Assembly: GCA_963807635.1 (NCBI GenBank)
Contig: CAWEDJ010000059.1
Span: 1-20,414 of the forward strand
Direction of reading: 5' to 3'
Origin: an uncultured cyanobacterium
Lineage (GTDB): Bacteria > Cyanobacteriota > Cyanobacteriia > Cyanobacteriales > Microcystaceae
Length of the DNA: 20,414 nt
A program made the position numbers and the translations under genes. Under the pieces are notes generated by a model that was given only the letters and a program-made list of their open reading frames with translations, was not told where the DNA came from and did no database searches. Within the stretch, counting starts at the first letter, position 1, and each line of letters opens with the position of its first letter. Of the stretch, positions 1,004 to 20,414 are shown one piece after another.

Positions 1004-1114
1004 GGGGGTTTCTCAACATTTCTTAATATTCTTTCTCATATTGTAACGAGGGAATGGGGGAATTGTATTAATGCTCAGAAATTCGGCGTATTCAGATTTT
1101 GGGTAAAAGTCGCG

Positions 1115-1147
1115 ATCGCCTTTCATCAAGTTACAAAACTCGCGATC
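1115..1147. repeat. 33-bp direct repeat, left copy (overlaps HIP1 at 1112-1119)
   Basis: ATCGCCTTTCATCAAGTTACAAAACTCGCGATC; 32/33 identical to 1758-1790. Confidence 0.95.
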
Positions 1148-1172
1148 AAACTCTATTACTCAATACCTTAAT

Positions 1173-1416
1173 CTATGCCAATTCTAAATGTGTAACTGGA
1201 ATTTTTTCCGTTTTTTCAGGGGTTTTTCGTCCAGTTGCTACAGCATGAACAGTATGAGAATATTTCAGCAGAATAATAACGATTGCCGCAGTTATTACAC
1301 ACACCAATCGTCACGTCTTCAAGAATGACAAAACCATCTCTATGTTTGAAGACTTCTCGTTTAATAAGGCGAGGTTGAACCGTTCCTTCACAGTATTCGC
1401 ATTGATAGCCGTACAT
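1173..1416 (-). CDS. YgiT-type zinc finger protein (putative antitoxin); one frameshift near 1260
   Basis: MYGYQCEYCEG...IGVCNNCGNRYYSAEI has two CxxC motifs; the shifted frame continues HTVHAVATGRKTPEKTEKIPVTHLELA* to TAG at 1173. Confidence 0.8.
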
Positions 1417-1420
1417 GGAG

Positions 1421-1716
1421 TTAGCCCTCAAGTTTGGTGATTTCATAAACTGTAATAATCAAATAACGTCCGCTAGTGGCGAAACGCCCAACTACCCCGA
1501 CGGGAGTTTGTAGATTAACTGCGGTTCCTGCAACAATGTATTTTGATCCCTTCGGATCATCTTTTTCAATCCGAACAACACGACCGTTTAAAATCGCTGT
1601 TTCTACATCGATGATGGTCAGATAGTATTCGCCATTTCTTCCATTGCATGGGCTAACATATCGTATTGTTGCAATCGGATTTTTTGACGGATACGATCAA
1701 TGTCGTTGTTTGACAC
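1421..1716 (-). CDS. DUF4258 family protein (putative toxin); one frameshift near 1628
   Basis: GTG at 1716 gives MSNNDIDRIRQKIRLQQYDMLAHAMEEM, then LTIIDVETAILNGRVVRIEKDDPKGSKYIVAG...RYLIITVYEITKLEG*; HA.EEM and IITVY motifs; ends 4 nt before the YgiT gene. Confidence 0.8.
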
Positions 1717-1742
1717 GAGCTAAATTTTGTTACGATTCGGTG

Positions 1743-1772
1743 ATCATAGCAAAATTAATCGCCTTTCATCAA
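1743..1772 (-). promoter_or_regulatory. Putative sigma70 promoter for the DUF4258/YgiT operon
   Basis: Minus strand TTGATG-N18-TATGAT with extended TG; the -35 box lies inside the right 33-bp repeat. Confidence 0.4.
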
Positions 1773-1790
1773 ATTACAAAACTCGCGATC
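1758..1790. repeat. 33-bp direct repeat, right copy (overlaps HIP1 at 1785-1792)
   Basis: ATCGCCTTTCATCAAATTACAAAACTCGCGATC. Confidence 0.95.
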
Positions 1791-1938
1791 GCGTTGTTGA
1801 TATTTAAAGATGAATAGGGGATCTAGGTCAGTGAAAAGAAATTTTAAGTAATAGAATTAAGATTGTCTAAATTTCACTGTTATCTTCTTGCAATATGCCG
1901 TTAAGTTGGAATGAAATTAAAAGTCGGGCGATCGCCTT

Positions 1939-2875
1939 TTAACAATTCGAAGAAGAAAGGTTGGCAATAGCCTGGGAAATAAAAGGTAAAATTTGAGGAT
2001 ACTCTCGTTTTCCTGCCCTTCCGTAAAAACCGTTAATAAATAGGGTTGTTTGTTGGGAATTTCAATATAGGCCGCATCATGGCGTACCTTACTTGTCCAG
2101 CCAGCCTTTGACCACAATTGAGCATTTTTGGGTAAAACTTCCCCTAAAAAGCCTGTAACCTGATTTTCTTCTCCTGCTTCAGGTTTCGCTACGTTTAAAG
2201 ACCGTTTTAATAATTTCATCATTTGTTGCGATCGCACGAAGAAACCGCCACACCGCCAACAATACTATGCAATAAACGAGCAACCGCATCGGTAGTTAAC
2301 ATATTGCGATTATCCAGCATTTTTCCCACAAAAGCCCGTTCTCGACCGTCTGGGGCCTTCATTCCAGGGTTTTTGATTCACATTAATTCCGTTTAATTCT
2401 TCCCACCCTAAATTTTGAAAATAACGATTGACTAAATTGCGTTGATGTTTCCAGGTTTCAAAGGGCGCGTCGGGTAATTCGGGGCGGCTGGTTGTTCCCG
2501 TCAAAGTATCCACAATTAAACTCGTGGCATCATTACTCAGATCCACGATAATATCGGTAATCGCCCGTTCTAATTCGGCAGAACTTTCGATCATGTTACC
2601 TTCTGCCATTCCGCGATCGCAACGAGATAAAACAATTTGACCAAACTAGCAGGATAAATGCGTTCAAAACTGCGATAACTATACCCCCGCACTGAATGCT
2701 TCCAAAATTCTTCTGCTGAGATAGCCCCGCCCGTATTGACAATTACTGGCTCATCATAAACGATCCAAGTGAGAGCAATTTGATCCCGTTTTAAACTAGG
2801 AAATTCCTGAAAAGCTGAATCTAAAATCGTCTGGACAGTTTGGTTGAGAGCTTGATCGGGACGGAAAAAAGTCAT
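1939..2875 (-). CDS. Serine hydrolase, class A beta-lactamase-like; split by apparent sequencing indels
   Basis: YPASLVKLFY (SxxK), LSNDATS (SxN-type) and WSKAGWTSKVRHDAAY (KxG) across ORFs 2591-2875, 2310-2609 and 1917-2237; the corrected C-terminus PQILPFISQAIANLSSSNC* ends at 1939. Confidence 0.85.
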
Positions 2876-3175
2876 GAGTTGAGAAACCAGAGATTTTTTT
2901 TATCAGTAAAGAAGGCTTTTAAAACTTCTCATTTTCAGACGCTTTACATTTGACGGTAATACGGTATGAGAGACAAAAAAAGCGTTTCGTTACCGATTTT
3001 ATCCGACAACAGAACAAGAGTCCCTTTTGCGGAGTACTTTAGATTGCGTAACATCAGTTTACAATAAATCTCTCCACAAGAGAACCCAAGCTTGGTAACT
3101 TCATTGAAAAAATCAAGCCCTTCCTCTTTTTTCCTCTGGGCAGGCAGGAGAAAGTCTGCTTAATACCAGAACTGG

Positions 3176-3367
3176 TTATCTTCCGACCCGAATGCCACGA
3201 AGAAAACTCAATAATCCAAAGACCTTCAAAATCCAGATAATCAGGGCGACGACAACCACAATATTCAAAATTCTTTTGATCTGACTATCCATTGGGATAT
3301 AGCCGTTGACCAGCCACAAGAGAACCCCAACTACGATGATAACCAACGAAAACTGAACCAAGTCCAT
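3176..3367 (-). CDS. Small two-helix membrane protein, Thivi_2564-like family
   Basis: MDLVQFSLVIIVVGVLLWLVNGYIPMDSQIKRILNIVVVV...GIRVGR; GAGG upstream of ATG 3367. Confidence 0.75.
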   Translation of the reverse strand: MDLVQFSLVIIVVGVLLWLVNGYIPMDSQIKRILNIVVVVALIIWILKVFGLLSFLRGIRVGR

Positions 3368-3497
3368 AACTAACCTCAATTTATGGCTATTTCACACAAG
3401 CTAAGATACAGACTCTCACCATATAAAAAATCAATGAAGTTTTTGTGAACTATCTACGGCAACGAAATAGCTCTCGGGCTTCAGAAAACCGACCCAT

Positions 3498-3548
3498 AAA
3501 AAAAAAGAACAAACACTGGGTCATTTCTGACAATCAGTTACTTGTTCT
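3498..3548 (-). terminator. Putative intrinsic terminator downstream of murA
   Basis: Imperfect hairpin AGAACAA..ACTG..GTCA/TGAC..CAGT..TTGTTCT followed on the minus strand by a U-tract; a second 9-bp inverted repeat TTGGGTTAA/TTAACCCAA lies at 3575-3605. Confidence 0.45.
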
Positions 3549-3635
3549 AATTTTCTAATGATTACAAAGTTGTATTGGGTTAAAATCTTAAACGGCTTAA
3601 CCCAAACTAAATAAAAACGATATGAGTCGAGTTAT

Positions 3636-4997
3636 TTAGACTAAACTCTCGGTATTGCTCAACAATTCAGAGGGAACATTTACTCGATGGAGATTCGCAC
3701 CTAATTTACGCAATTTTCCTTCAATATCATCGTAGCCCCAATCTAGGTGTTTTAAGCCTTGAATCGTTGTTTTACCCTCCGCCGCTAAACCTGCTACCGC
3801 TTAAGGCCGAAGAAGCACGGAGATCGGTGGACATGACAGGCGCACCCGATAAGAAAGGAACCCCTTGAACGACAGCCACATTTCCTTTGACTCGGATATT
3901 GGCTCCCATGCGTTGAAGTTCGGCAACGTGTTGTAAACGATTTTCAAACACCGTTTCTGTCACCATGCTGCTACCTTCACTCATGGCCGGCGACGCCATG
4001 AATTGAGCCTGCATATCGGTCGGAAAGCCAGGATAGGGCAAGGTTTCAATATCGGCTCCTTTTAGGGGCCGGGAATTAAACGAATACGATCAGGGGAATC
4101 GATAATCACCTTGGGGCAAATTTCTCGTAATTTTGCGATCGCCGAAGCTAGATGAGCGGGAATCACGGGAAAAAGACTAATTTCAGAGTGGGTAATCGCT
4201 CCTGCAACCAAGAAAGTCGCCGCCTCAACGCGATCGGGCAGAATAGGATAATCCGTCGAGTGCAGGCGTTCTACCCCGCTAATGACAATTGTATTGGTTC
4301 CTGCACCCATAATTTTTGCCCCATCGAACAGCAAAAATTCGCGAGATCAATAATTTCTGGCTCTGGGCCGCATTTTCAATAATGGTTTCCCCGTCGGCCC
4401 AGGGTTGCCGCCATCATGATGGTTTCCGTTGCACCGACACTGGGATAATCCAGATAAATTTTGGCTCCTGTCAGACGCTTGCGATTGCCTTTAACACTGG
4501 CTTGGACAACCCCATGCTCAATGATCACATCCGCTCCCATCGCTTGCAGACCCCGCACATGGAGATCCACAGCCGCCCCCGATCGCACAACCCCCAGGAA
4601 GAGGTACGCGAGTTGTTCCTAAACGGGCGAGTAATCAGCCAATCACAAAAAAGCTGGCCCGCAATTGGGAAACCAATTCATAGGGAGCTTGAGATTGACC
4701 GATATTTCGAGCATCAAAATCGAGAATATCTGCATTCTGCTCTATCTTTACGCCGATAGCCGATAAAATCTGGCTCATGCGGGTGATATCAGCGAGGTTT
4801 GGCAAATTCCGTAGGCGGCAATCATCTGAACAGAGGATCGTTCCTGCCATGATGGCCAGTGCGGAATTTTTTGCCCCGCTAATTCTCACTTCGCCTTTTA
4901 GGGTCGAACCGCCAAAAATTTCAATAACGGGCTGATTTAGATTCTCAGACTCCAAAGTATTTGTAATGGTGTTTGTTTCAATATGAGTAGGTTTTAT
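3636..4997 (-). CDS. murA: UDP-N-acetylglucosamine 1-carboxyvinyltransferase; several apparent sequencing indels; start either ATA 4997 or TTG 4955
   Basis: [24 protein letters not shown] (catalytic Cys), [34 protein letters not shown] and TDLRAS motifs; stop TAA at 3636. Confidence 0.97.
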
Positions 4998-5060
4998 GAC
5001 GTTACCCTCCGATGGTTAGATGATGATATAAAAATTATGCACATAAAAAATCGCTCCTGA

Positions 5061-5088
5061 ATTATACTAGAAAACTGTAAAATGTCTA
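5061..5088 (-). promoter_or_regulatory. Putative murA promoter
   Basis: Minus strand TAGACA-N16-TATAAT. Confidence 0.4.
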
Positions 5089-5159
5089 GTTTTTTTTACT
5101 AAATTTCTAAAATTCAAACCGCGATCGCTGATAACGGGAGAAAGTTTTCTCAAAAAAGA

Positions 5160-5189
5160 TTGACTAAATAACCTTTTATGCGCCATGAT
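5160..5189 (+). promoter_or_regulatory. Putative tRNA-Leu promoter
   Basis: TTGACT-N18-CATGAT, 35 nt upstream of the tRNA. Confidence 0.4.
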
Positions 5190-5224
5190 GATTTATTGGT
5201 TACAAAAAAACTAAAAAACTATAG

Positions 5225-5308
5225 GCGGTACTGGCGGAATTGGTAGACGCGCTAGATTCAGGTTCTAGTGTTCGCAAGGACTTCCGGGTTCGAGTCCCGG
5301 GTTCCGCA
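5225..5308 (+). tRNA. trnL: tRNA-Leu(CAG)
   Basis: GCGGTAC/GTTCCGC acceptor stem (one U-U mismatch), D-arm GGCGGAATTGGTAGACGC, anticodon stem CTAGA-TTCAGGT-TCTAG, long variable arm, TTCGA T-loop; CCA not encoded. Confidence 0.96.
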
Positions 5309-5413
5309 TTTAGTTCAACTTTGCCAAATCTAGGTCGCACAATAACTTTAAATTAGTGAGAAGATGAACAAAAAAGCCAGTCATTCTTACAAAGTTTATT
5401 CGCGAATTTCGGC

Positions 5414-6208
5414 ATGATTACCAGTTCGCAAAATCCCCTCGTCAAACAAATTCGTAGGCTCCATCGCGCTAAAGGACGACAGGAGCAGAATTTATTATTA
5501 TTAGAAGGAACACATCTCCTAGAGACGGCTTTGGAGGTGAATTGTTCCTTAGAAACTGTCTGTTATAGTCCTCAATGGCAGGTTAAATATTCCCAACTTT
5601 ACGAACAAGTTTTAACGCGATCGCGCCGAGTGGAATGTGTGAGTCCTGAAGTGTTGCAACAATTGGCTACGACGGTGAATCCCGATGGCGTGATTGCAAC
5701 CATTGACCGAGATTTTCAAAATTTAAGCCCGATAAAGTCTCCGAAGTTAGGATTAATCCTCGAAAGAATCCAAGATCCAGGCAATTTAGGCACGATTATT
5801 CGTTCTGCCGTTGCGACAGGTGTGGAGGGTCTTTGGACGAGTGAAGATAGTGTGGAGTTGGATAATCCCAAGGTATTGCGGGCTTCTGCGGGAGCCTGGT
5901 TTCATTTGCCGAAGAAATCTAGTCCTGATTTGGAAAAATTAATTCAAGACTATCAAACCCAGGGAATACAGGTAATTGCAACTCAGATGAATGCACCTAA
6001 AACCTATTGGGAAACGGATTTTAGGCGATCGAGTATTATTCTTCTGGGCAATGAAGGGACGGGGTTAAGCGCAGATTTGGCTAACTTAGCGGATGAAACA
6101 GTCAGCATTCCTTTGGCTTCTGGGGTGGAATCTCTCAATGTGGCGATCGCGACGGCTTTGTTGTTGTATGAAGCGCAACGACAAAAGGCTAGTTTGGAAA
6201 AACGGTGA
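5414..6208 (+). CDS. TrmH/SpoU family RNA 2'-O-methyltransferase
   Basis: ITSSQNPLVK, IQDPGNLGTIIRS, LGNEGTGLS and VESLNVAIA SPOUT motifs; follows murA and tRNA-Leu. Confidence 0.95.
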   Translation: MITSSQNPLVKQIRRLHRAKGRQEQNLLLLEGTHLLETALEVNCSLETVCYSPQWQVKYSQLYEQVLTRSRRVECVSPEVLQQLATTVNPDGVIATIDRDFQNLSPIKSPKLGLILERIQDPGNLGTIIRSAVATGVEGLWTSEDSVELDNPKVLRASAGAWFHLPKKSSPDLEKLIQDYQTQGIQVIATQMNAPKTYWETDFRRSSIILLGNEGTGLSADLANLADETVSIPLASGVESLNVAIATALLLYEAQRQKASLEKR

Positions 6209-6324
6209 GATTGATAGATTTTACGAAAAGTGCGATCGCATTTCTTGGTTTTTAATAAACGCGATCACGAGAATCTTCATAGTAAAGCGAGATTAACTTG
6301 AGAAAAAAAAACAAAATAGATTCG

Positions 6325-6711
6325 CTAGAATTGTGTTTTCCAAACCAATGCAATAGCGATAATAGCAGGAGCCGTTTGGATATATAAAGTTTTTAGGTTT
6401 TTAGCTTCTGTTGAGTCCTTATTGGGTAAGGTCATCGCTCCAAAGATTCCTGCGATCGCCACACAAATCAGAAAAAAGAGTCGTAATTCAAAAGTATTTT
6501 CCTGGGCAAACACTGACCCAAAGAGTCCTGCGGCAATGAAGCTGTTGTAAATGCCTGCATTTTTGGCAATCGGAGCAGTTCTAAGGGCATCTGGGGTAGA
6601 AAAACCAAATAGTTTTTCTAAAAGGTAGGTGGTGAAGAAAATTTCTCCTACTGCAAAACCAAAATGGATTAGGGCATTAAGAATGATGGCAATTTGTGTT
6701 AGTAATGTCAT
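6325..6711 (-). CDS. DUF1304 family membrane protein
   Basis: ALIHFGFAVGE, NAGIYNSFIAAGL, VAIAGIFGA and YIQTAPA motifs; AGGAG 9 nt before ATG 6711. Confidence 0.8.
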   Translation of the reverse strand: MTLLTQIAIILNALIHFGFAVGEIFFTTYLLEKLFGFSTPDALRTAPIAKNAGIYNSFIAAGLFGSVFAQENTFELRLFFLICVAIAGIFGAMTLPNKDSTEAKNLKTLYIQTAPAIIAIALVWKTQF

Positions 6712-6720
6712 TGCAATTGG

Positions 6721-8178
6721 CTCCTGACTTTTCCCATTAAGTCTGAAACCGACCACAGAATAAGGGTTTCAAGCTCTTCACTATTTTCAACAATTTAGGT
6801 TAAGAAAAAGCCCTAAAAGAGGTAGGTGGTATATGGTTAAGCCACGGGTAGCGCAAGAAACAGTGAAATTCATTGATGAATACTGTGAAGTGTATAGAGA
6901 CTTATTCCCAGAAGTGAGAAGTTATGAATATTTTAAATATCTGCACTTGGGATTAATATCAGAGAAAAAAAGAAAGACATTTCCAGCAATAGCGGAAGTA
7001 GCGGGGCTAGAAAATAGTCAGGGAATAGATTATTTTATAGGAAAATCAGAGTGGTCAGTAGAGGAAGTAAGAAAGAGAAGATTAAAATTAATTTTAAATG
7101 AAGTAAAAGAGGAGGAAATAATGGTAATTATAGACGAAACAGGAGATAGAAAAAAAGGGAATAAAACAGATTATGTGAAGAGACAATACATAGGAAATCT
7201 AGGAAAGATAGAAAATGGAATAGTGGCAGTAACAGCCTATGGCGTAATAAGAGGAATGACATTCCTCTTATTAAGTGAAGTGTACAAACCAAAGTTAAGA
7301 TTAAAAGAAGGAGATGAATACAAAAGTAAGCCAAAAATTGCAGGAGAAATGATTAAAAAGCTGAAAGAGTTAGGATTTAAAATTAAAATCGTATTAGCAG
7401 ATAGTGAATATGGTGAAAGTGAGAATAATTTTGTTAGTATCTTAGAAAAAGAAAAACTAGACTTTGTGCTAGCGATTCGGAGCAATCACTGAGTATGGTT
7501 GGCACCTGAGCAAAAAATAAGATGTAATAAATGGAGAGAGTTCACCAGAATATTCTCAACAAGAAAGAAAGAAATCAGATATATAAGAGAGATTATATTC
7601 GGTAAAAAAAGAGAAATAAGATATTGGCAAGTAACAGATAATACAGAAACGCTACCACCGAACTCCACTTTCTATATTATGACAAAAGTAGCCAACATTA
7701 AATATAAAGAAGTTGGTAACTTGTACGGAGTAAGAAATTAGGTAGAGTACGGTTTAAAGCAAAGTAAAAATGAATTAGGATGGGCAGATTTTCGAGTAAC
7801 AGAATATAAAAAAATGAAAAGTGGTGGGAACTGATCATGAGTGCTTACTTAATGGTTAGTCTTCAATCAGAAGCCTTGAACAAATCCAGAAAACCTCCTG
7901 ATACATTAGCTGAATCTGCTCAAGAAGAAATGCAGAAACACCCAAAATGGAATAAGGGAAAGGGCTGGAAAAATACCCTCAATAATTTACGATTGTTTAT
8001 TCAGCCATTATGTTACTTCAATCTGCTTAAACCTTGGTTAGTCGTGATTTTTACTCCTCAAATACTACGAGTATTTTGTCGTCTATTCTTCCAGTTAAGT
8101 AAACTAACAAATTCTCTGTTGGAGATGATTTTTCCTCGTAGTTTCTATCTATCTTCTGCCTAGAGTGATAGAACAGCG
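6721..8178 (+). mobile_element. IS701-family insertion sequence (ends approximate; no clear terminal inverted repeat pair found)
   Basis: Purine-rich, HIP1-free segment carrying an IS701-type transposase. Confidence 0.8.
6833..8163 (+). pseudogene. IS701-family transposase pseudogene
   Basis: IIDETGDRKKG, KRQYIGNLGKIENGIV, LADSEYGE and ELGWADFR motifs; in-frame stops TGA 7490 (SNH*VWL) and TAG 7739 (RN*VEYG); frameshift near 7815. Confidence 0.9.
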
Positions 8179-8494
8179 CTATCAATTTCTTGTCAAGTTA
8201 CAATTGCTAGTTAAATGCGCTAGTTATTGCTCTTCTTCTTGAGGGGTTACAATCGTTTTAATTGCTTCTTCACACCACAGCAAACAATCGGATTCAAATC
8301 TAATCGGCTCTCCGCTATTGTGTGTGATAACCCATGCTTATAAATTCATTAAATCCTTTCATAGCAATCCTTTCGATCTTATCTTTTCTAGGCTAGTAAT
8401 GACTATAACCCGATTTTCCACACAGTTAGGGGAAGAGCCGCGTTACTTTGTTAGCATGGAAAAACTAGAGCGATCATTGGAGATCAAAGACTTA

Positions 8495-8575
8495 GATCGT
8501 CGTTTAATTTAGCCTACAAAAAGCGATCGCGGATCACTCCAGAAATATTTTTAAGAATTTGAAGAATTTGATAAA
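8495..8575. repeat. 81-bp direct repeat, left copy (contains HIP1 8523-8530 and the 3' end of the nuclease gene)
   Basis: 76/81 identical to 9213-9293. Confidence 0.95.
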
Positions 8576-9161
8576 GTTTATGACGACGAGCGACAAATAA
8601 AGAAAATGGTTCGGAAAAATCGTAGATAATTTCAGTATTTTCTTGCATGAGTTTAACAAACATAAATAAATCGCCATCTGTCACCAGCCCATAGAGCGGT
8701 TGGGAGGGTTGGGGATTGCCTAGCATATAAGCCAAACATTGGTGAATGGCCGCCGTCAGAGCAACGGAACGCTTGGATTCAACGATTAAAATCCAGATTT
8801 CTTGTTGAATAATGAGGGTATCAATTCTGCCTTTTAAGATTTCGTGAGTATCTTGAATTTCGATTTGAACGGGGGCTTCGGCGGTGACGAAAAAGGGTTC
8901 ATCATAAAATCCAGCGAGTTCTAGCAGGGGAAAGACTAAAAGCAGTTTAACGGTTTCTTCGGATAATTCTGCTCTGTCTCGATGTCTTCGATAACGTTGG
9001 TAGTATTTATCTAAAATTTGTTTTTCGCGATCGCTAAGTTCGGGCAGATTGTCTGTCCATTCGCGGAAAAATTGATCATTGTTGGCTTGAACGAGGGGAA
9101 ATTTTTGAGTGAGTTGTTCAAGGCTTATAATGCGTTTTGAAATACTGGTAATAGTCGGCAT
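8514..9161 (-). CDS. Stand-alone PD-(D/E)xK nuclease, type I restriction enzyme R N-terminal-like (cyanobacterial family)
   Basis: EETVKLLLVFPLLELAGFY, GRIDTL...VESKR, QCLAYM and YGLVTDGDLFMFVKL motifs. Confidence 0.8.
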   Translation of the reverse strand: MPTITSISKRIISLEQLTQKFPLVQANNDQFFREWTDNLPELSDREKQILDKYYQRYRRHRDRAELSEETVKLLLVFPLLELAGFYDEPFFVTAEAPVQIEIQDTHEILKGRIDTLIIQQEIWILIVESKRSVALTAAIHQCLAYMLGNPQPSQPLYGLVTDGDLFMFVKLMQENTEIIYDFSEPFSLFVARRHKLYQILQILKNISGVIRDRFL

Positions 9162-9212
9162 AATTGTTCATACTCATAATCAATAGCATTCTGTTTTTAA
9201 GTTTTAAATGGC

Positions 9213-9293
9213 GATCGCCGTTTAATTTAGGCTACAAAAAGCGATCGCGGATTACTCCAGAAAAATTTTTAAGAATTTGAAGAATTTCATAAA
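9213..9293. repeat. 81-bp direct repeat, right copy (HIP1 9211-9218, 22-bp spacer, HIP1 9241-9248; overlaps the yoeB stop)
   Basis: Direct alignment to 8495-8575. Confidence 0.95.
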
Positions 9294-9547
9294 ATATAAT
9301 GGAATCTACAGGCGATAATTGTAATTTCCTCGAATGCAACACTATAAATTAATCGGTGTTCGGAGGTAATTCGTCTTGACCAATAACCTGATAAATTCGC
9401 TTTTAATAATTCGGGTTTACCAATTCCTTCTGTAGGATTTCTGAATATATCCTTGATCAAAAGATTGACTCGCTTCAATAATTTTTTATCGTTATCCTGT
9501 AACCAAAGATAGTCTTCCCAAGCGGCTTCTGTAAAGGTGATTTTCAT
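9287..9547 (-). CDS. yoeB: Txe/YoeB family mRNA interferase toxin
   Basis: AWEDYLWLQ, GIGKPE.LK.NLSGYWSRRITSEHRLIY and CRFHY motifs; ATGA overlap with the antitoxin. Confidence 0.95.
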   Translation of the reverse strand: MKITFTEAAWEDYLWLQDNDKKLLKRVNLLIKDIFRNPTEGIGKPELLKANLSGYWSRRITSEHRLIYSVAFEEITIIACRFHYIL

Positions 9548-9798
9548 GGTTCAATGAGTTCCTTCACGACGGTTTTGCCCGTGTTAGCTTGTTCAATAGA
9601 TTTGCGTAAATGTTCGGCATTCGCAGGATTTGACAACAGATAGAGGGTTTCTTGCCAAGCGTTAAATTCGTCTAGGGACATTAAAACAGCTTGTTTGCCT
9701 TGTTCATTACAGACAATGGTGGGTTCTGCATTTAAATTTACTCGATCAATCAGTTCATCGAGTCTTTGTTTTGCTTGATTGCTGGTAATGGCTTCCAT
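9544..9798 (-). CDS. yefM: Phd/YefM family antitoxin
   Basis: AVLMSLDEFNAWQETLYLLSNPANAEHLRKSI. Confidence 0.93.
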   Translation of the reverse strand: MEAITSNQAKQRLDELIDRVNLNAEPTIVCNEQGKQAVLMSLDEFNAWQETLYLLSNPANAEHLRKSIEQANTGKTVVKELIEP

Positions 9799-9940
9799 CG
9801 TTTTTTTTGTTCAGTTTTAGGTTTTAGGGAGGAATTTTTATCTTTTATTTTCTACACTTAGACGATACGTTATTTTAGTGTTGAGATAGAGGTGTGCCTG
9901 AATTCTAAGATAAAATCAGAAAAACGACTATTCCTAATCA

Positions 9941-13228: not shown

Positions 13229-13316
13229 TTTGCTTAGTTTAATTGGCTTAATCTATGGTCTTCAGAACAAATACAGGATTGTTTTTTGCGATTTTACCCC
13301 TAAAACACCTTTGTTA

Positions 13317-14228
13317 GGGCGTGTCATCAATTAGGGGGGTTGACATTAGTGGCAAATAATGCGCAGAGTATGAAATGACACAATATACGTTGAAGAGAGG
13401 TGTGAATATGACGAGGCGTTATGCGTTGCGGGATGACCAATGGGAAAGAATCAAAGAGCTATTACCTGGAAAAGAGGGAGATGTGGGAGTAACAGCCAAA
13501 GATAATCGTTTGTTTGTTGAAGCCGTATTATATCGATATAGAGCGGGCATTCCTTGGAGAGACTTACCCGAAAGGTTTGGAGATTTTCGAGTGATTCACA
13601 CGCGTTTTACGCGATGGACGAAATCAGGGGTGTGGGAAAAGGTATTCAAGCACTTAGCGCAGGACGCTGATAATGAATACGCAATGATAGATGCAACGAT
13701 TGTGAGAGCGCATCAACACAGTGCAGGAGCAAAAAACAGTAGCGCAGAGGAAGAAGATATAGGAAGGAGTACAGGAGGATTAAGTACGAAAATCCATGCC
13801 GTAGTAGACGCATTAGGGAATCCAGTCTCTTTTTTCCTAACGCCAGGTCAAGCGTGTGATTTAGACGGAGCCGATGTGCTATTGCCTGATGTAGAAGCAG
13901 AAGCGGTGCTAGGGGACAAAGCCTATGACGCAGACGATAGAGTCATTAAGGTTCTAGAAAAAAGAGGGATAGTGCCTGTGATACCCTCGAAAAGTAATCG
14001 AAAAGAACCTCGCCCTTATGATACATTTTTGTATAAAGCGCGTCATTTAGTCGAAAACTTCTTTGCGAAACTCAAACAATATCGTGCGCTTGCGACTCGT
14101 TACGACAAGCGCTCAGCCAATTTTCTAGGCGGCATCTATCTGGCCGCATCAGTTATATGGTTAGCGTAGCCCAGTTTAAACAGCATAATTATTCACTAAT
14201 GTCAAGTGTGTTAATTGATGACACGCTC
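13317..14228 (+). mobile_element. IS5-family element (IS427/IS1031-like), 912 bp, TA target duplication
   Basis: TIRs GGGCGTGTCATCAATTA / TAATTGATGACACGCTC (16/17); flanked by TA at 13315-13316 and 14229-14230. Confidence 0.95.
13408..14169 (+). CDS. IS5-family transposase, intact single ORF
   Basis: GIPWRDLPERFG, IDATIVRAHQHSAGA, GGLSTKIHAVVD, GDKAYD and YKARHLVENFFAKLKQYRALATRYDK motifs; GAGAGG before ATG 13408. Confidence 0.95.
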   Translation: MTRRYALRDDQWERIKELLPGKEGDVGVTAKDNRLFVEAVLYRYRAGIPWRDLPERFGDFRVIHTRFTRWTKSGVWEKVFKHLAQDADNEYAMIDATIVRAHQHSAGAKNSSAEEEDIGRSTGGLSTKIHAVVDALGNPVSFFLTPGQACDLDGADVLLPDVEAEAVLGDKAYDADDRVIKVLEKRGIVPVIPSKSNRKEPRPYDTFLYKARHLVENFFAKLKQYRALATRYDKRSANFLGGIYLAASVIWLA

Positions 14229-14260
14229 TAGTTCTTTTTTTGTATTAATGGCACTAAATT

Positions 14261-15599: not shown

Positions 15600-15624
15600 T
15601 AGGGACATAATATACTCTGTCCTT
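15600..15624. repeat. REP-like palindrome, copy 1 (degenerate)
   Basis: TAGGGACATAATATACTCTGTCCTT; matches 17935-17959 at 23/25. Confidence 0.75.
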
Positions 15625-16254: not shown

Positions 16255-16280
16255 TAGAAACATAATAAATTATGTCCTTA
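16255..16280. repeat. REP-like palindrome, copy 2 (degenerate)
   Basis: TAGAAACATAATAAATTATGTCCTTA; 23/26 to 17935-17960. Confidence 0.75.
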
Positions 16281-17131: not shown

Positions 17132-17937
17132 ATGTTTTGGTACGACGGAAAATTAGTTGAAAATAATCAAATTTCCCTAGAAATTCATAACCCTGGTTTA
17201 ATCTATGGTGCGACAGTTTTTACAACCCTGCGAGTTTATCATTCTTCCCTAAATCATCCTTTAACCCACTGGCAACAACACTGCGATCGCCTCAAAAAAA
17301 GTTTGATACAATTTGACTGGCCATTTCCTGATTGGCAAGAAATGATAAATGGAGCCGAACAATTATTAACACATTATCCTATTTTACGAATTGTTGTTTT
17401 TCCCGATCGCAAAATTTGGATTACAGGACGCTTTTTGTCCGAAGATTTAGCTCTACGTCAGCAAGAAGGAATCATTGGCTGGGTTGCAAATTCACCTATT
17501 TTTAAGCGATCTCTAGCAGATCATAAAACAGGGAATTATTTAACCGCTTGGTTAGCCCTACAAAAAGCCCAAAAACAAGGAGCCAAAGAAGCAATTTTAA
17601 TGAATGATCATAATGATTGGCTAGAAACCTGTACGGGCAATTTGTGGGGCTGAAAAACAATTGTTTCTGGACACCACCCGATAATGGCACAATTTTACCT
17701 GGGATTACGCGATCGCAACTTTTACAGTATTTACAACAACAAGGAATAGAAGTTAAACAAGACTATTGGAGTCCTAATTTAATTCAATCTTTTGAGAGCA
17801 TTGCCTACAGTAATTGCGGCGTAGAAATCATTCCCTTTTTCAAAATATTAAATCAATCCCAAACACTAGAATTCAATCCTCACCATCCTTCGTTAAATTT
17901 ATTAAAAAATTATTTTCAACAATCAAAAATCCCGTAG
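17132..17937 (+). CDS. Aminotransferase class IV (4-amino-4-deoxychorismate lyase-like); frameshift near 17650
   Basis: GLIYGATVFTTLR, HCDRL, HKTGNYL and ETCTGNLWG, then WTPP..GTILPGITR in the second frame. Confidence 0.88.
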
Positions 17938-17960
17938 GGACATAATATATTATGTCCTTA
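17934..17960. repeat. REP-like palindrome, copy 3 (most intact, GTAG-headed)
   Basis: GTAGGGACATAATATATTATGTCCTTA forms a near-perfect hairpin; lies between convergent genes. Confidence 0.8.
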
Positions 17961-18765: not shown

Positions 18766-20414
18766 GGGCTTGCTGAAAAAGTCAAAAAACAGGAAGAGGG
18801 GATTAATTTATGAATTTAAGGCGAGTAAAACATAAGGGTTAAATGAATTGTCAACACAAAGCATAAGCTGGGCTAATAAGAGGGCAGAAAAATAAGCTCT
18901 TCTTCCGAAAAAGACAAAAAAAACGTAAAACCTGCCGAAGCAGGGCAAAAAGATTGATGACTAAAAAGGTGATAGCAATAGCGGTTTCAGAGGTATCAGG
19001 AAGTTTTGTCATAACTCGATTGAGGCTAAATCGTCTCTTTGCTTGACCAAATTTGCCTTCAATAGCATTACGGTCTCTTTCATCTTGAAGAGCTTCTTTC
19101 TTTTTTTCTGGACTAATATTTGTGGGTCGTCTTCCCAAGGGTGGGCCACTCAATCGAATTCCCTTCTCCTTACAAAAAGCGCGATTTTCCCTTGTGCGAT
19201 AGATTGCATCAGCATGAACAGACTGGGGATAGTAGCCTGTCTCACGTTTAAACTCTTCTATTTGTCCTTTGAAGTCGCCTGATTCATTATAATTATCCCA
19301 ACTTAATCGGTATAAATAAAGATATCCATTCACATAACTTGCTGATAGTTTTGCACCAAACTCTACTGGCGTTCCCGCTTTTCCTCTAACAATGGGACGA
19401 ACATGAGGTTGAGTCAAACTCACAATTCTATTTTCTACCTTATTTTCTTTATTTTCATACATTCCTACTTGTTGCTCATAGGCTTTTTGTATTATCGACA
19501 GTATCTTTTCGTCTTTTTTACTTAATTTTGCGACCTCTTTATCTTCTCTTAATTTTTCTATATGGGAAAGGTTTCTTTTGATATATTGGATTTGTTTTTT
19601 ATGCCCTTTCTCCTTTCTTTTCTCGACGGACGGCGTTTTTTTGACAATTTTAAGTAATCTTTTCTGGCTCTTATTCTATAGGTTCTTGGTTTTTTTCCTT
19701 TTTTTTTAGTTTTTTTATACAAGTTGTCTATTATTTTTTCGGTTTTTTCTCTTGCCTCATTCAAGATTCCTATATCTGTTGGATATTTGATGTCTGCTGG
19801 TGCACAGGTTGCATCTATTAATAGCTTTCCTCTATTCTGATTTTCCCCTTCACTTTTTTCTTTTACTTCTGATAATATTTCTTCTTCTTTTTTTACCATT
19901 GCTTTATTTATTTGATTCACCAAGTCCATTCCTATTCTTTGACGGAAATGTACTAACAGTGACGCATCAAATGCCTCCTCATTTTCATATACTTCTAGTC
20001 CTATAAAATATTGTAAGTAAGGGTTTTCTTTTATTTGTTCTACTGTTTCTCGGTCACTTATTCTCAATATTTCTTTTATTATTAATGACCCTAATGCCAT
20101 CCTAAATGGTTTGGCTGTCGCTCCTTTATTTTCTGAAAATTGTTTTGCATATTCTTCTTCAAATTCCTCCCACGGAATTATTTTTGACATGATTACCCAA
20201 CGATTTTCTTCTTTTGGCTTCCACTCACTTGGTATTTTGAAGTTTTCAACAGTCGATTTTTCGGATTCTTTTTTGGGGTACATCGTTCAATGCTCTGGAA
20301 GGGGAGGGGTGCAAGCCTTTTCACTCATTTTAGACCTTTTTTTTGCACTTTTTTTGCTCTCTAAATCCCCTCATCTCTTTTCTTATAAGGCTTTCAGCTT
20401 TTTTCAGCAAGCTC
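18766..20414 (-). mobile_element. IS5-family element, about 1.65 kb, ending exactly at the window edge
   Basis: TIR GGGCTTGCTGAAAAA at 18766 versus TTTTTCAGCAAGCTC at 20400-20414 (14/15); CTAG at the left junction. Confidence 0.92.
18851..20283 (-). CDS. IS5-family transposase; one frameshift in an A-tract near 19595
   Basis: FRMALGSLIIKE, QIKENPYLQYF, LIDATCAPADIKYPTD, RPIVRGKAGTPVEFGAK and RNAIEGKFGQAKRRF motifs; one added A fuses the two ORFs via KKQIQYIKRNL. Confidence 0.9.

Follow-up and report, generated by a model that had tools for sequence, protein, structure and literature searches.

Integrons and CALINs carry toxin-antitoxin genes as cassettes of one or two genes, each with a 3' site that is able to supply the stop codon, and the order of these cassettes changes. 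Xer/dif modules rely on a 28-bp site that combines two 11-bp arms with a core fixed at 6 bp, and REP and REPIN elements consist of a conserved palindrome with a GTAG-type end that flanks a RAYT gene. The present work concerns a different kind of joint, the abundant palindromic octamer GCGATCGC (highly iterated palindrome 1, HIP1), in a 20,414-nucleotide stretch of an uncultured cyanobacterium from a freshwater lineage of the family Microcystaceae (G000:C59:1-20414, hereafter the window), where HIP1 occurs next to small toxin-antitoxin and nuclease genes, often as two octamers separated by a short spacer (a doublet). In three reports, HIP1 has been linked to excision, to site-specific recombination and to methylation-dependent or methylation-enhanced transformation (PMC4390886; PMC13756078; bioRxiv 2024.09.10.611283). 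The smtB deletion (Gupta 1993) and the work of Robinson 1997 and Akiyama 1998 are cited for HIP1-linked excision or recombination in PMC13756078 and PMC4390886.

Further elements deserve comparison. SDR5 (Elhai 2008), as cited in PMC4390886, PMC5861425 and PMC13756078, is one sequence family inserted within single HIP1 octamers at bases 3/4, so far reported from Nostocaceae alone. Xu et al. 2018 (PMC5861425) report HIP1 periods of 18-94 kb, with bins of 25 bp to 7 kb, and PMC7935541 describes a Microcystis ParDE-like module with 152-bp direct repeats that hold a 16-bp inverted repeat. Earlier binding assays are reported not to have found a HIP1-specific protein complex (PMC13756078; PMC5861425).

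The arrangement described below resembles integrons and CALINs in its small cassettes, 3' sites, site-supplied stop codons and changing order and content. It differs in its lack of an integrase, attC boxes or a specific hairpin, in the use of either orientation, in its dispersed arrays and in an empty site that is plain HIP1. The architecture is integron-like yet integrase-free and built on HIP1; it extends known HIP1 recombination and is not a member of the integrons. With known HIP1 recombination it shares crossover within the octamer that leaves one HIP1 behind, found here in an empty allele and in a breakpoint excess. The known cases are single deletions or plasmid events, whereas the arrays described here hold several genes, are shuffled and shared between genera, contain repeated linker units and come with a short-range rule of HIP1 spacing. 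In place of the Xer/dif arms there are 8-bp HIP1s with spacers of 18-30 nt. SDR5 is likewise a unit of ~21 nt tied to HIP1, but its description sets it apart from the diverse spacers found here, which have an intact HIP1 on either side and adjoin genes. REP, BIME and REPIN elements (PMC3184786) are similar in their length of ~38 bp, their extragenic position 3' of genes and their occurrence as doublets and tandem arrays, but HIP1 doublets have neither a conserved REP sequence nor a GTAG end. The periodicity of Xu et al. is also a non-random HIP1 spacing, whereas the one described here concerns distances of 10-60 bp and is particular to one lineage. The Microcystis module is, like ours, a cyanobacterial toxin-antitoxin pair fenced by identical direct repeats, but GCGATCGC is absent from the main text of PMC7935541. 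In the literature surveyed, partly in accessible extracts, with few subscription papers and with Xu et al. 2018 taken without its supplements, there was no description of HIP1 doublets, of HIP1-jointed toxin-antitoxin arrays or of a sub-100-bp rule, and the clade-specific spacing rule has apparently gone unreported before.

Results

Genomes and sequence quality

The assembly containing the window (G000) comprises 4.03 Mb at 41% GC, is 94% complete and holds 4758 HIP1 octamers. We compared six genomes of its genus g1 (G000-G005) and G014, a 100% complete genome from a different genus of the same family, which together are termed the clade, with an outgroup of 34 other cyanobacteria. Many genes of the window are frameshifted; identical single-base corrections (e.g. 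at 2236, 2351 and 2604) appeared in all four sequencing runs examined, so that these are likely sequencing errors. The first 6.8 kb of the window are also present on contig C58 as an assembly overlap. Runs X7 and X10 probably represent one data set.

Probable crossover at HIP1 in the window

We identified HIP1 as the likely natural cut-and-join point for gene cassettes in this lineage, operating without an integron integrase. The crossover point is HIP1: this was seen directly once, at site A, and otherwise has statistical support. Site A is a 33-bp direct repeat (1115-1147 and 1758-1790, 97% identity) on the minus strand. Its left copy (1112-1147), 3' of an antitoxin-like gene, consists of a full HIP1 (1112-1119), a 22-nt spacer and a partial HIP1, GCGATC; its right copy (1758-1792) consists of a partial HIP1, ATCGC, a 22-nt spacer and a full HIP1 (1785-1792). 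The two full octamers are the outer crossover points. An earlier note on the window had reconstructed a site with two HIP1s from the two copies; the repeat is confirmed, and each copy holds one full and one partial octamer. The enclosed module is encoded on the minus strand. It contains a zinc-finger antitoxin-like gene (1173-1446), presumably of YgiT type, which has no Pfam match and is frameshifted in the window and intact, at 90 aa, in G004, and a DUF4258 toxin-like gene (1420-1716; PF14076, E 3e-11), intact at 98 aa in G004. One base at 1257-1258, in the antitoxin-like gene, is missing from the contigs of three of the four runs. The right copy overlaps the likely promoter of the gene pair (TTGATG-18-TATGAT, assigned by eye).

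A 455-bp metagenome contig (X7/X10) carries the empty allele of this site, in which 10 shared letters, HIP1 included, form the joint between positions 1109 and 1783. An empty site with one doublet had been foreseen; the empty allele exists, but keeps a single HIP1 and no doublet. The window module also matches G002 at a different locus from one HIP1 to the next, starting at HIP1 1785-1792, and run X1 has it between copies of site A, together with 758 other bases, on a contig apart from nblB. The site A sequence recurs in G001 and at G000 C40:22485. Flanking doublets were found at none of eight distant cyanobacterial homologues of the DUF4258 gene. A joint in run X5 (1792 to 1168) was not taken as an excised circle, being better read as an allele of the left site.

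At site B, also on the minus strand, our sequence check agrees with the exact HIP1-N22-HIP1 reported at 9211-9248, which is the right copy. The left copy (8493-8530) is composed of a decayed HIP1, a spacer that supplies a stop codon and a full HIP1 (8523-8530) within the last codons of an HSDR_N-like, i.e. restriction-nuclease-like, gene of 215 aa (8514-9161, minus strand; PF04313, E 1.5e-4, under the curated cut-off). This gene ends on HIP1 in its last codons, and its stop codon comes from whatever sequence follows. Matches in G014, G003 and G002 start at HIP1 8523-8530; in G014, of another genus, window positions 8523-9830 are 94% identical, the match beginning on HIP1 8523, and MiaA of that genome is only 72% identical to the window MiaA. 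In G003 the HSDR_N-like gene lies after purM, beside another doublet.

The repeat at site B spans 86 bp, of which 50 bp belong to the HSDR_N-like gene at its 3' end. Repeat comparison identified the 3' remnant of a second, tandem copy of this gene (9249-9298, minus strand), a 5' piece of which is kept in G014 upstream of yefM. Based on the repeat and the G014 piece, site B marks a tandem nuclease cassette copy with its middle replaced by the yoeB-yefM toxin-antitoxin pair (9287-9798, minus strand), which lies within the second nuclease-gene copy and has no HIP1 bounds. The earlier note had described two repeat-bracketed modules, and the repeats are real, but that of site B includes a gene end and yefM-yoeB is not HIP1-bounded. 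The cargo of G004 switches at the HIP1 of the right copy, and contigs of three of the four runs cease to match the window at 9217-9223. Upstream of the nuclease-like gene, G004 (L001:13018-16336) carries alternative cargo, namely three minus-strand genes, of 133 aa, of 266 aa and of the DUF4041/T5orf172 type; in G014 the 133-aa gene is again found nearby.

Statistical support comes from 294 breakpoints between G004 and G000, of which 26 coincide with an exact HIP1 (11.6 ± 3.3 expected), the alignments starting or ending on octamer edges. Nine fall within doublets (3.1 ± 1.9 expected). Per non-coding HIP1, breakpoints are no more frequent at doublets (6/77) than at singles (16/229, p=0.8).

Reshuffled arrays across the clade

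Twenty G000 loci were picked for repeats or doublets after a repeat scan. Their bracketed modules matched HigBA, DUF3782, DUF4160/DUF2442, two ParE-like, YafQ, PemK, BrnT, DUF433/DUF5615, ParE, PIN and YefM/YoeB families; one bracketed gene pair and one single gene had no domain match. A strict automatic rule returned eight bracketed modules in G000, five in 1.02 Mb of G004 and six overlapping pairs at two loci in 415 kb of G014. The same rule found no module in 400 kb of G018, which has a similar HIP1 density, five non-coding doublets and no 42-52 trough in HIP1 spacing. Cargo of the G014 arrays includes PIN, YafQ, HepT/nucleotidyltransferase and DUF4351 genes.

Alternative-cargo alleles, one of the outcomes proposed in the earlier note, are present: arrays are reshuffled and carry different cargo between species. 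At locus L089, G000 has the order site, DUF433/DUF5615, site, ParE pair, site; G003 has ParE pair, HigBA, DUF433/DUF5615, and in G004 the same core gene is preceded by three site units and a PIN pair. At L084, G003 contains 3.3 kb of extra DNA at the middle site, and unrelated cargo genes of opposite orientation share one flanking site sequence. Paired sites of one module can be identical within a genome and differ between genomes (L103 vs L084). The bodies of the ParE/ParDE pair, the YafQ pair, DUF3782 and DUF4160/DUF2442 have the same HIP1-adjacent ends across species, and the spacer beyond is changed or missing; the same cassettes stand beside single HIP1s in G001, G002 and G005. With the DUF4258 and DUF3782 cargo, the 5' spacer travelled along. 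Every cargo gene of the window is encoded on the minus strand and has a site at its 3' side, as had been observed, but this orientation relative to the site is not kept in other arrays. A candidate clean empty site for a XisH/XisI module (G000 C105:27834-27930) was not counted because its upstream context differs.

Anatomy of the doublets

Spacers of non-coding doublets measure 18-30 nt, with a mode of 22 nt (21 of 122 doublets). The supposedly exact 22-bp spacing holds for sites A and B, but genome-wide it is only the mode of this range. When 61 spacers were oriented by the nearest gene end, T was found at positions 2-5 in 67-84%, and the opposite end was purine-rich; non-coding doublets usually follow a gene, T-tract first. 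In G004 the upstream gene is co-oriented at 32 of 42 doublets (p=0.001), with no orientation bias in the gene downstream. After the first HIP1 there is a T-tract in 19/24 doublets vs 26/94 single sites. TACAAAA, suggested as part of a common spacer logo, is not shared, and sites A and B have the T-tract-first arrangement in common only when read gene-wise.

The imperfect 38-bp palindrome proposed for each site proved to be compositional. Watson-Crick pairing of spacer positions i/-i does not exceed the shuffled expectation at seven of eight positions (0.34 vs 0.28 at the eighth), and spacers combined from chimeric halves fold no worse than native ones. The sense strand gave the better RNA fold in 40 cases vs 20.

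Neighbouring doublets tend to resemble each other, with 11 of 34 near pairs similar in G000 (0.8 expected, at most 4 in 300 shuffles) and 6 of 14 pairs in G004 (0.3 expected). HIP1-spacer units also occur in tandem, with three in L113 and seven (eight HIP1s) in L219, and one G014 array has eight HIP1s ~33 bp apart. The site sequence at L083:990-1034 or its twin accounts for 12 of 24 matches across G001, G003, G004 and G005, which indicates that some spacers form dispersed families.

A clade-specific rule of HIP1 spacing

Measured start to start, HIP1 pairs in G000 number 4 at 9-20 bp (70 expected) and 18 at 41-56 bp (94 expected, the trough centring near 48 bp), in contrast to 107 at 26-36 bp (65.5 ± 8 in a local shuffle); beyond 56 bp the counts are near baseline. 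The spacer-length peak beyond HIP1-density expectation that had been suggested as a check was therefore found. A small peak at 21 bp was also observed in this genome.

We counted pairs in all 41 genomes in four 11-wide spacer bins, 2-12, 18-28, 34-44 and 150-160 nt, the last serving as baseline. The seven clade genomes sum to 10, 995, 76 and 532 pairs, respectively, and the other 34 to 542, 1397, 1089 and 1241, so that spacers of 2-12 and 34-44 nt stand at 0.02 and 0.14 of baseline in the clade vs 0.44 and 0.88 in the others. Among 20 informative genomes (baseline of at least 28 pairs), the 34-44 ratio is at most 0.20 in 7/7 clade genomes and at least 0.56 in 13/13 others. The 18-28 nt peak is present in five of the seven clade genomes, G002 and G005 showing troughs only, and three non-clade genomes have an 18-28 nt peak of 1.5-2.2 and no deep trough. 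G033 is unlike all other informative genomes in having an excess of pairs spaced by 2-12 nt (97 vs a baseline of 52). In 1.02 Mb of G004 the troughs extend over coding and non-coding DNA; the peak belongs to non-coding DNA and is echoed near 60-70 bp. The rule holds for HIP1, as well as for variants of the octamer at positions 1/8 and 2/7, and not for other GATC.

Chance or an assembly artefact was rejected as the cause, since the counts are nearly the same after masking duplicated contig ends and five other g1 genomes show the troughs. Local repair that lowers mutation near HIP1 was rejected because divergence is flat 15-200 bp around 808 conserved HIP1s, and a GATC-level (Dam or SeqA-like) effect because non-HIP1 GATC is not depleted. 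The abundant ones of eight control hexamers besides CGATCG, namely TGATCA, TTTAAA and AAATTT, are flat in spacing. GGATCC is very rare in G000 (53 unmasked copies).

Search for candidate machinery

The integron integrase (TIGR02249) scored over the cut-off in 6/41 genomes and in 0/7 clade genomes. The earlier note had remarked that the sites lack attC boxes; using the patterns given there (RYYYAAC/GTTRRRY), we found them in 0/156 G000 doublets, in agreement, and in 2/59 G004 doublets (random 1.1%). No nuclease partner lies beside either C5 methyltransferase in the neighbourhoods examined. The DpnI domain was detected in 0/41 genomes, in a search whose controls gave no match either. The EVE domain is present in 7/7 clade genomes and also in 21/34 others. 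Among non-clade genomes, the 34-44 ratio comes to 480/632 where a canonical-type EVE domain is present vs 609/609 where it is absent (p=0.014, 13 genomes); because this correlation is post hoc, concerns one of three families tried and was drawn among kin, we treat it as a weak lead only. G006 (L229:3299-4437) has a stand-alone EVE gene directly downstream of dprA, an arrangement not seen in five other genomes mapped.

Other features of the window

The first codons of an MmeI-family restriction-modification gene are found at 1895-1971 on the plus strand, where the match stops just past HIP1 1928-1935. A decayed fourth doublet (1928-1971) lies where this gene breaks off; the doublet is exact in G004, and G001 (L016) has the full-length gene of 912 aa. 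A third doublet, site C (6232-6268, minus strand), overlooked in the earlier note, consists of HIP1, 21 nt and a one-mismatch HIP1, and is located 3' of a DUF1304 gene (6325-6756, minus strand). This gene belongs to a 2.2-kb block missing from G004, within which a degraded IS701-like transposase (DDE_5) with stops was also recognised (6800-8180). An IS5-like element with 48-bp terminal inverted repeats (13315-14230) is absent in G004 as well, and transposase-like pieces occupy 18851-20283. A tRNA gene (5225-5308) lies between murA-like pieces and trmH; a search of six sources against Rfam gave nothing but a tRNA.

GTAG-type REP-like palindromes at 15600-15624, 16255-16279 and 17935-17959 bracket one Uma2 gene and follow another, which indicates that a second, HIP1-independent repeat system also adjoins nuclease genes. 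The pattern has 130 both-strand matches in G000, some of them off-target, and similar repeats flank a RAYT-like gene on contig C73. All three RAYT-like loci of G000 have GTAG-type repeats upstream that are unrelated to HIP1 doublets, and a doublet follows one of the three.

Discussion

Our analysis suggests that the toxin-antitoxin and nuclease arrays probably move by crossover inside HIP1, and that the HIP1 pairs ~30 bp apart are linker units and not a recombinase site. Any two HIP1s would then be joinable, and the moving unit could be any HIP1-to-HIP1 stretch, be it a gene pair, a spacer of 20-30 nt or the two together. Such a unit would lead to genes beside single HIP1s, to tandem spacer units and to site-gene-site blocks landing in one HIP1. 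Donor DNA probably enters by natural transformation, a likely route in view of the published HIP1 links to excision, site-specific recombination and methylation-dependent transformation. The repeats would form where a gene lands beside, or duplicates with, a spacer unit and is then carried onward between the outer HIP1s. We hypothesise that a HIP1-reading complex with ~30-bp geometry favours a second site one unit off and blocks half and one-and-a-half units, with a second subunit that may read or block the adjoining 30 bp. Toxin-antitoxin addiction would hold excisable modules in place. The further proposal that HIP1 is an integrase-free, genome-wide cassette system, whose complex reads methylated pairs ~30 bp apart, captures transformed HIP1-ended DNA and reshuffles defence-gene arrays at dozens of loci, is conceivable, and we regard it as doubtful.

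A number of results weigh against HIP1 crossover as the source of the arrays. HIP1 was found at the empty site in just 8/41 clean G004/G000 indels, and paralogue alignments within G000 end on HIP1 in both copies in 3/567 cases; most rearrangement is therefore not HIP1-linked. In the window itself, yefM-yoeB entered without HIP1 ends, and the 2.2-kb DUF1304 block, absent in G004, has no HIP1 at its ends. The sole empty allele comes from a related strain (~93% identity) and does not give the direction of change, and no excised circles were seen among the assembled contigs, the only material examined. No responsible protein was found among the families and methyltransferase neighbourhoods screened in the clade genomes. 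The association with toxin-antitoxin and nuclease genes put forward in the earlier note is borne out by the bracketed modules, but the overall excess is modest: at equal threshold such genes are neighbours in 12/51 cases at doublets vs 7/60 at single HIP1s (p=0.13). This test covered 51 mostly co-oriented proteins (50 of 69 listed neighbours and one other), a choice that, like a looser threshold, favours the doublet set, and hence the equal-threshold count was used. Finally, the seven clade genomes are kin, so that the spacing rule amounts to about one evolutionary origin.

The position of the doublets invites another interpretation, in which they are gene-end signals (a terminator or mRNA-protecting hairpin, sometimes a promoter half) that travel with small genes. 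The repeats would then result from ordinary RecA recombination, and from tandem duplication, between similar signals, and the spacing rule would be unconnected with them. The co-oriented upstream genes, the T-tract after the first HIP1 and the better fold of the sense strand are all in keeping with such signals, as are the 5' spacers that moved with the DUF4258 and DUF3782 cargo and some duplications, which span HIP1 plus 30-50 nt. We nevertheless judge this interpretation unlikely: the joint of the empty allele consists of 10 letters shared between the outer HIP1s and not of the 33-bp repeat, the L084 site sequence flanks unrelated cargo in both orientations, pairing between the spacer halves is not specific, and the model gives no reason for the troughs seen in coding sequence. 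Following the earlier note, the doublet itself could instead be a site dedicated to recombination and used by an unrecognised recombinase; a single strand might fold there into a hairpin that, like attC, offers HIP1 in double-stranded form. Integron-like cargo, the 3' position of the sites, site-supplied stop codons and shuffling would fit, together with module sites identical within a genome and different between genomes (L103 and L084) and the nine breakpoints within doublets. This proposal fares poorly against the empty allele with its one HIP1, the same cassettes adjoining single HIP1s in three genomes, the changing spacers of variable length, the lack of a per-site breakpoint excess at doublets and the failure to detect an integrase in the clade or attC boxes in G000, and we consider it quite improbable.

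Least convincing is a HIP1-anchored "ruler" nuclease that would cut ~20-30 nt from HIP1, so that a HIP1-ended donor joined there would give rise to a doublet and duplicate the target. Facing nicks made from two sites ~48 bp apart would break the chromosome, and that spacing would be purged. The 4.9-kb insertion at C88/C41 does duplicate HIP1 and about 30 nt, the repeat of site A from ATCGC to GCGATC fits the insertion point of SDR5 at HIP1 bases 3/4 as reported in PMC4390886, and the trough is centred where the model would place it. Set against this, other duplications are 37-63 nt long and not fixed, the empty allele of site A has no pre-existing doublet, G002 and G005 have troughs and no doublet peak, and neither C5 methyltransferase is adjoined by a candidate nuclease; we hold this model to be very unlikely. 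Crossover inside HIP1 with doublets as linker units remains our preferred explanation.

The function of HIP1 has been sought for three decades, and the present results offer two new handles on it. One is the existence of natural cassettes that end on HIP1. The other is a sharp rule, with pairs near-absent at ~10-20 and 42-55 bp and allowed at 26-36 bp, which predicts the geometry of a HIP1 reader. If the crossover is efficient, it would provide a simple way to move DNA in cyanobacteria and would account for defence genes crossing the genera of this lineage. Should the proposal of a genome-wide cassette system be true, the HIP1-binding machine that has long been looked for would have left its first footprint in the spacings forbidden in coding DNA.

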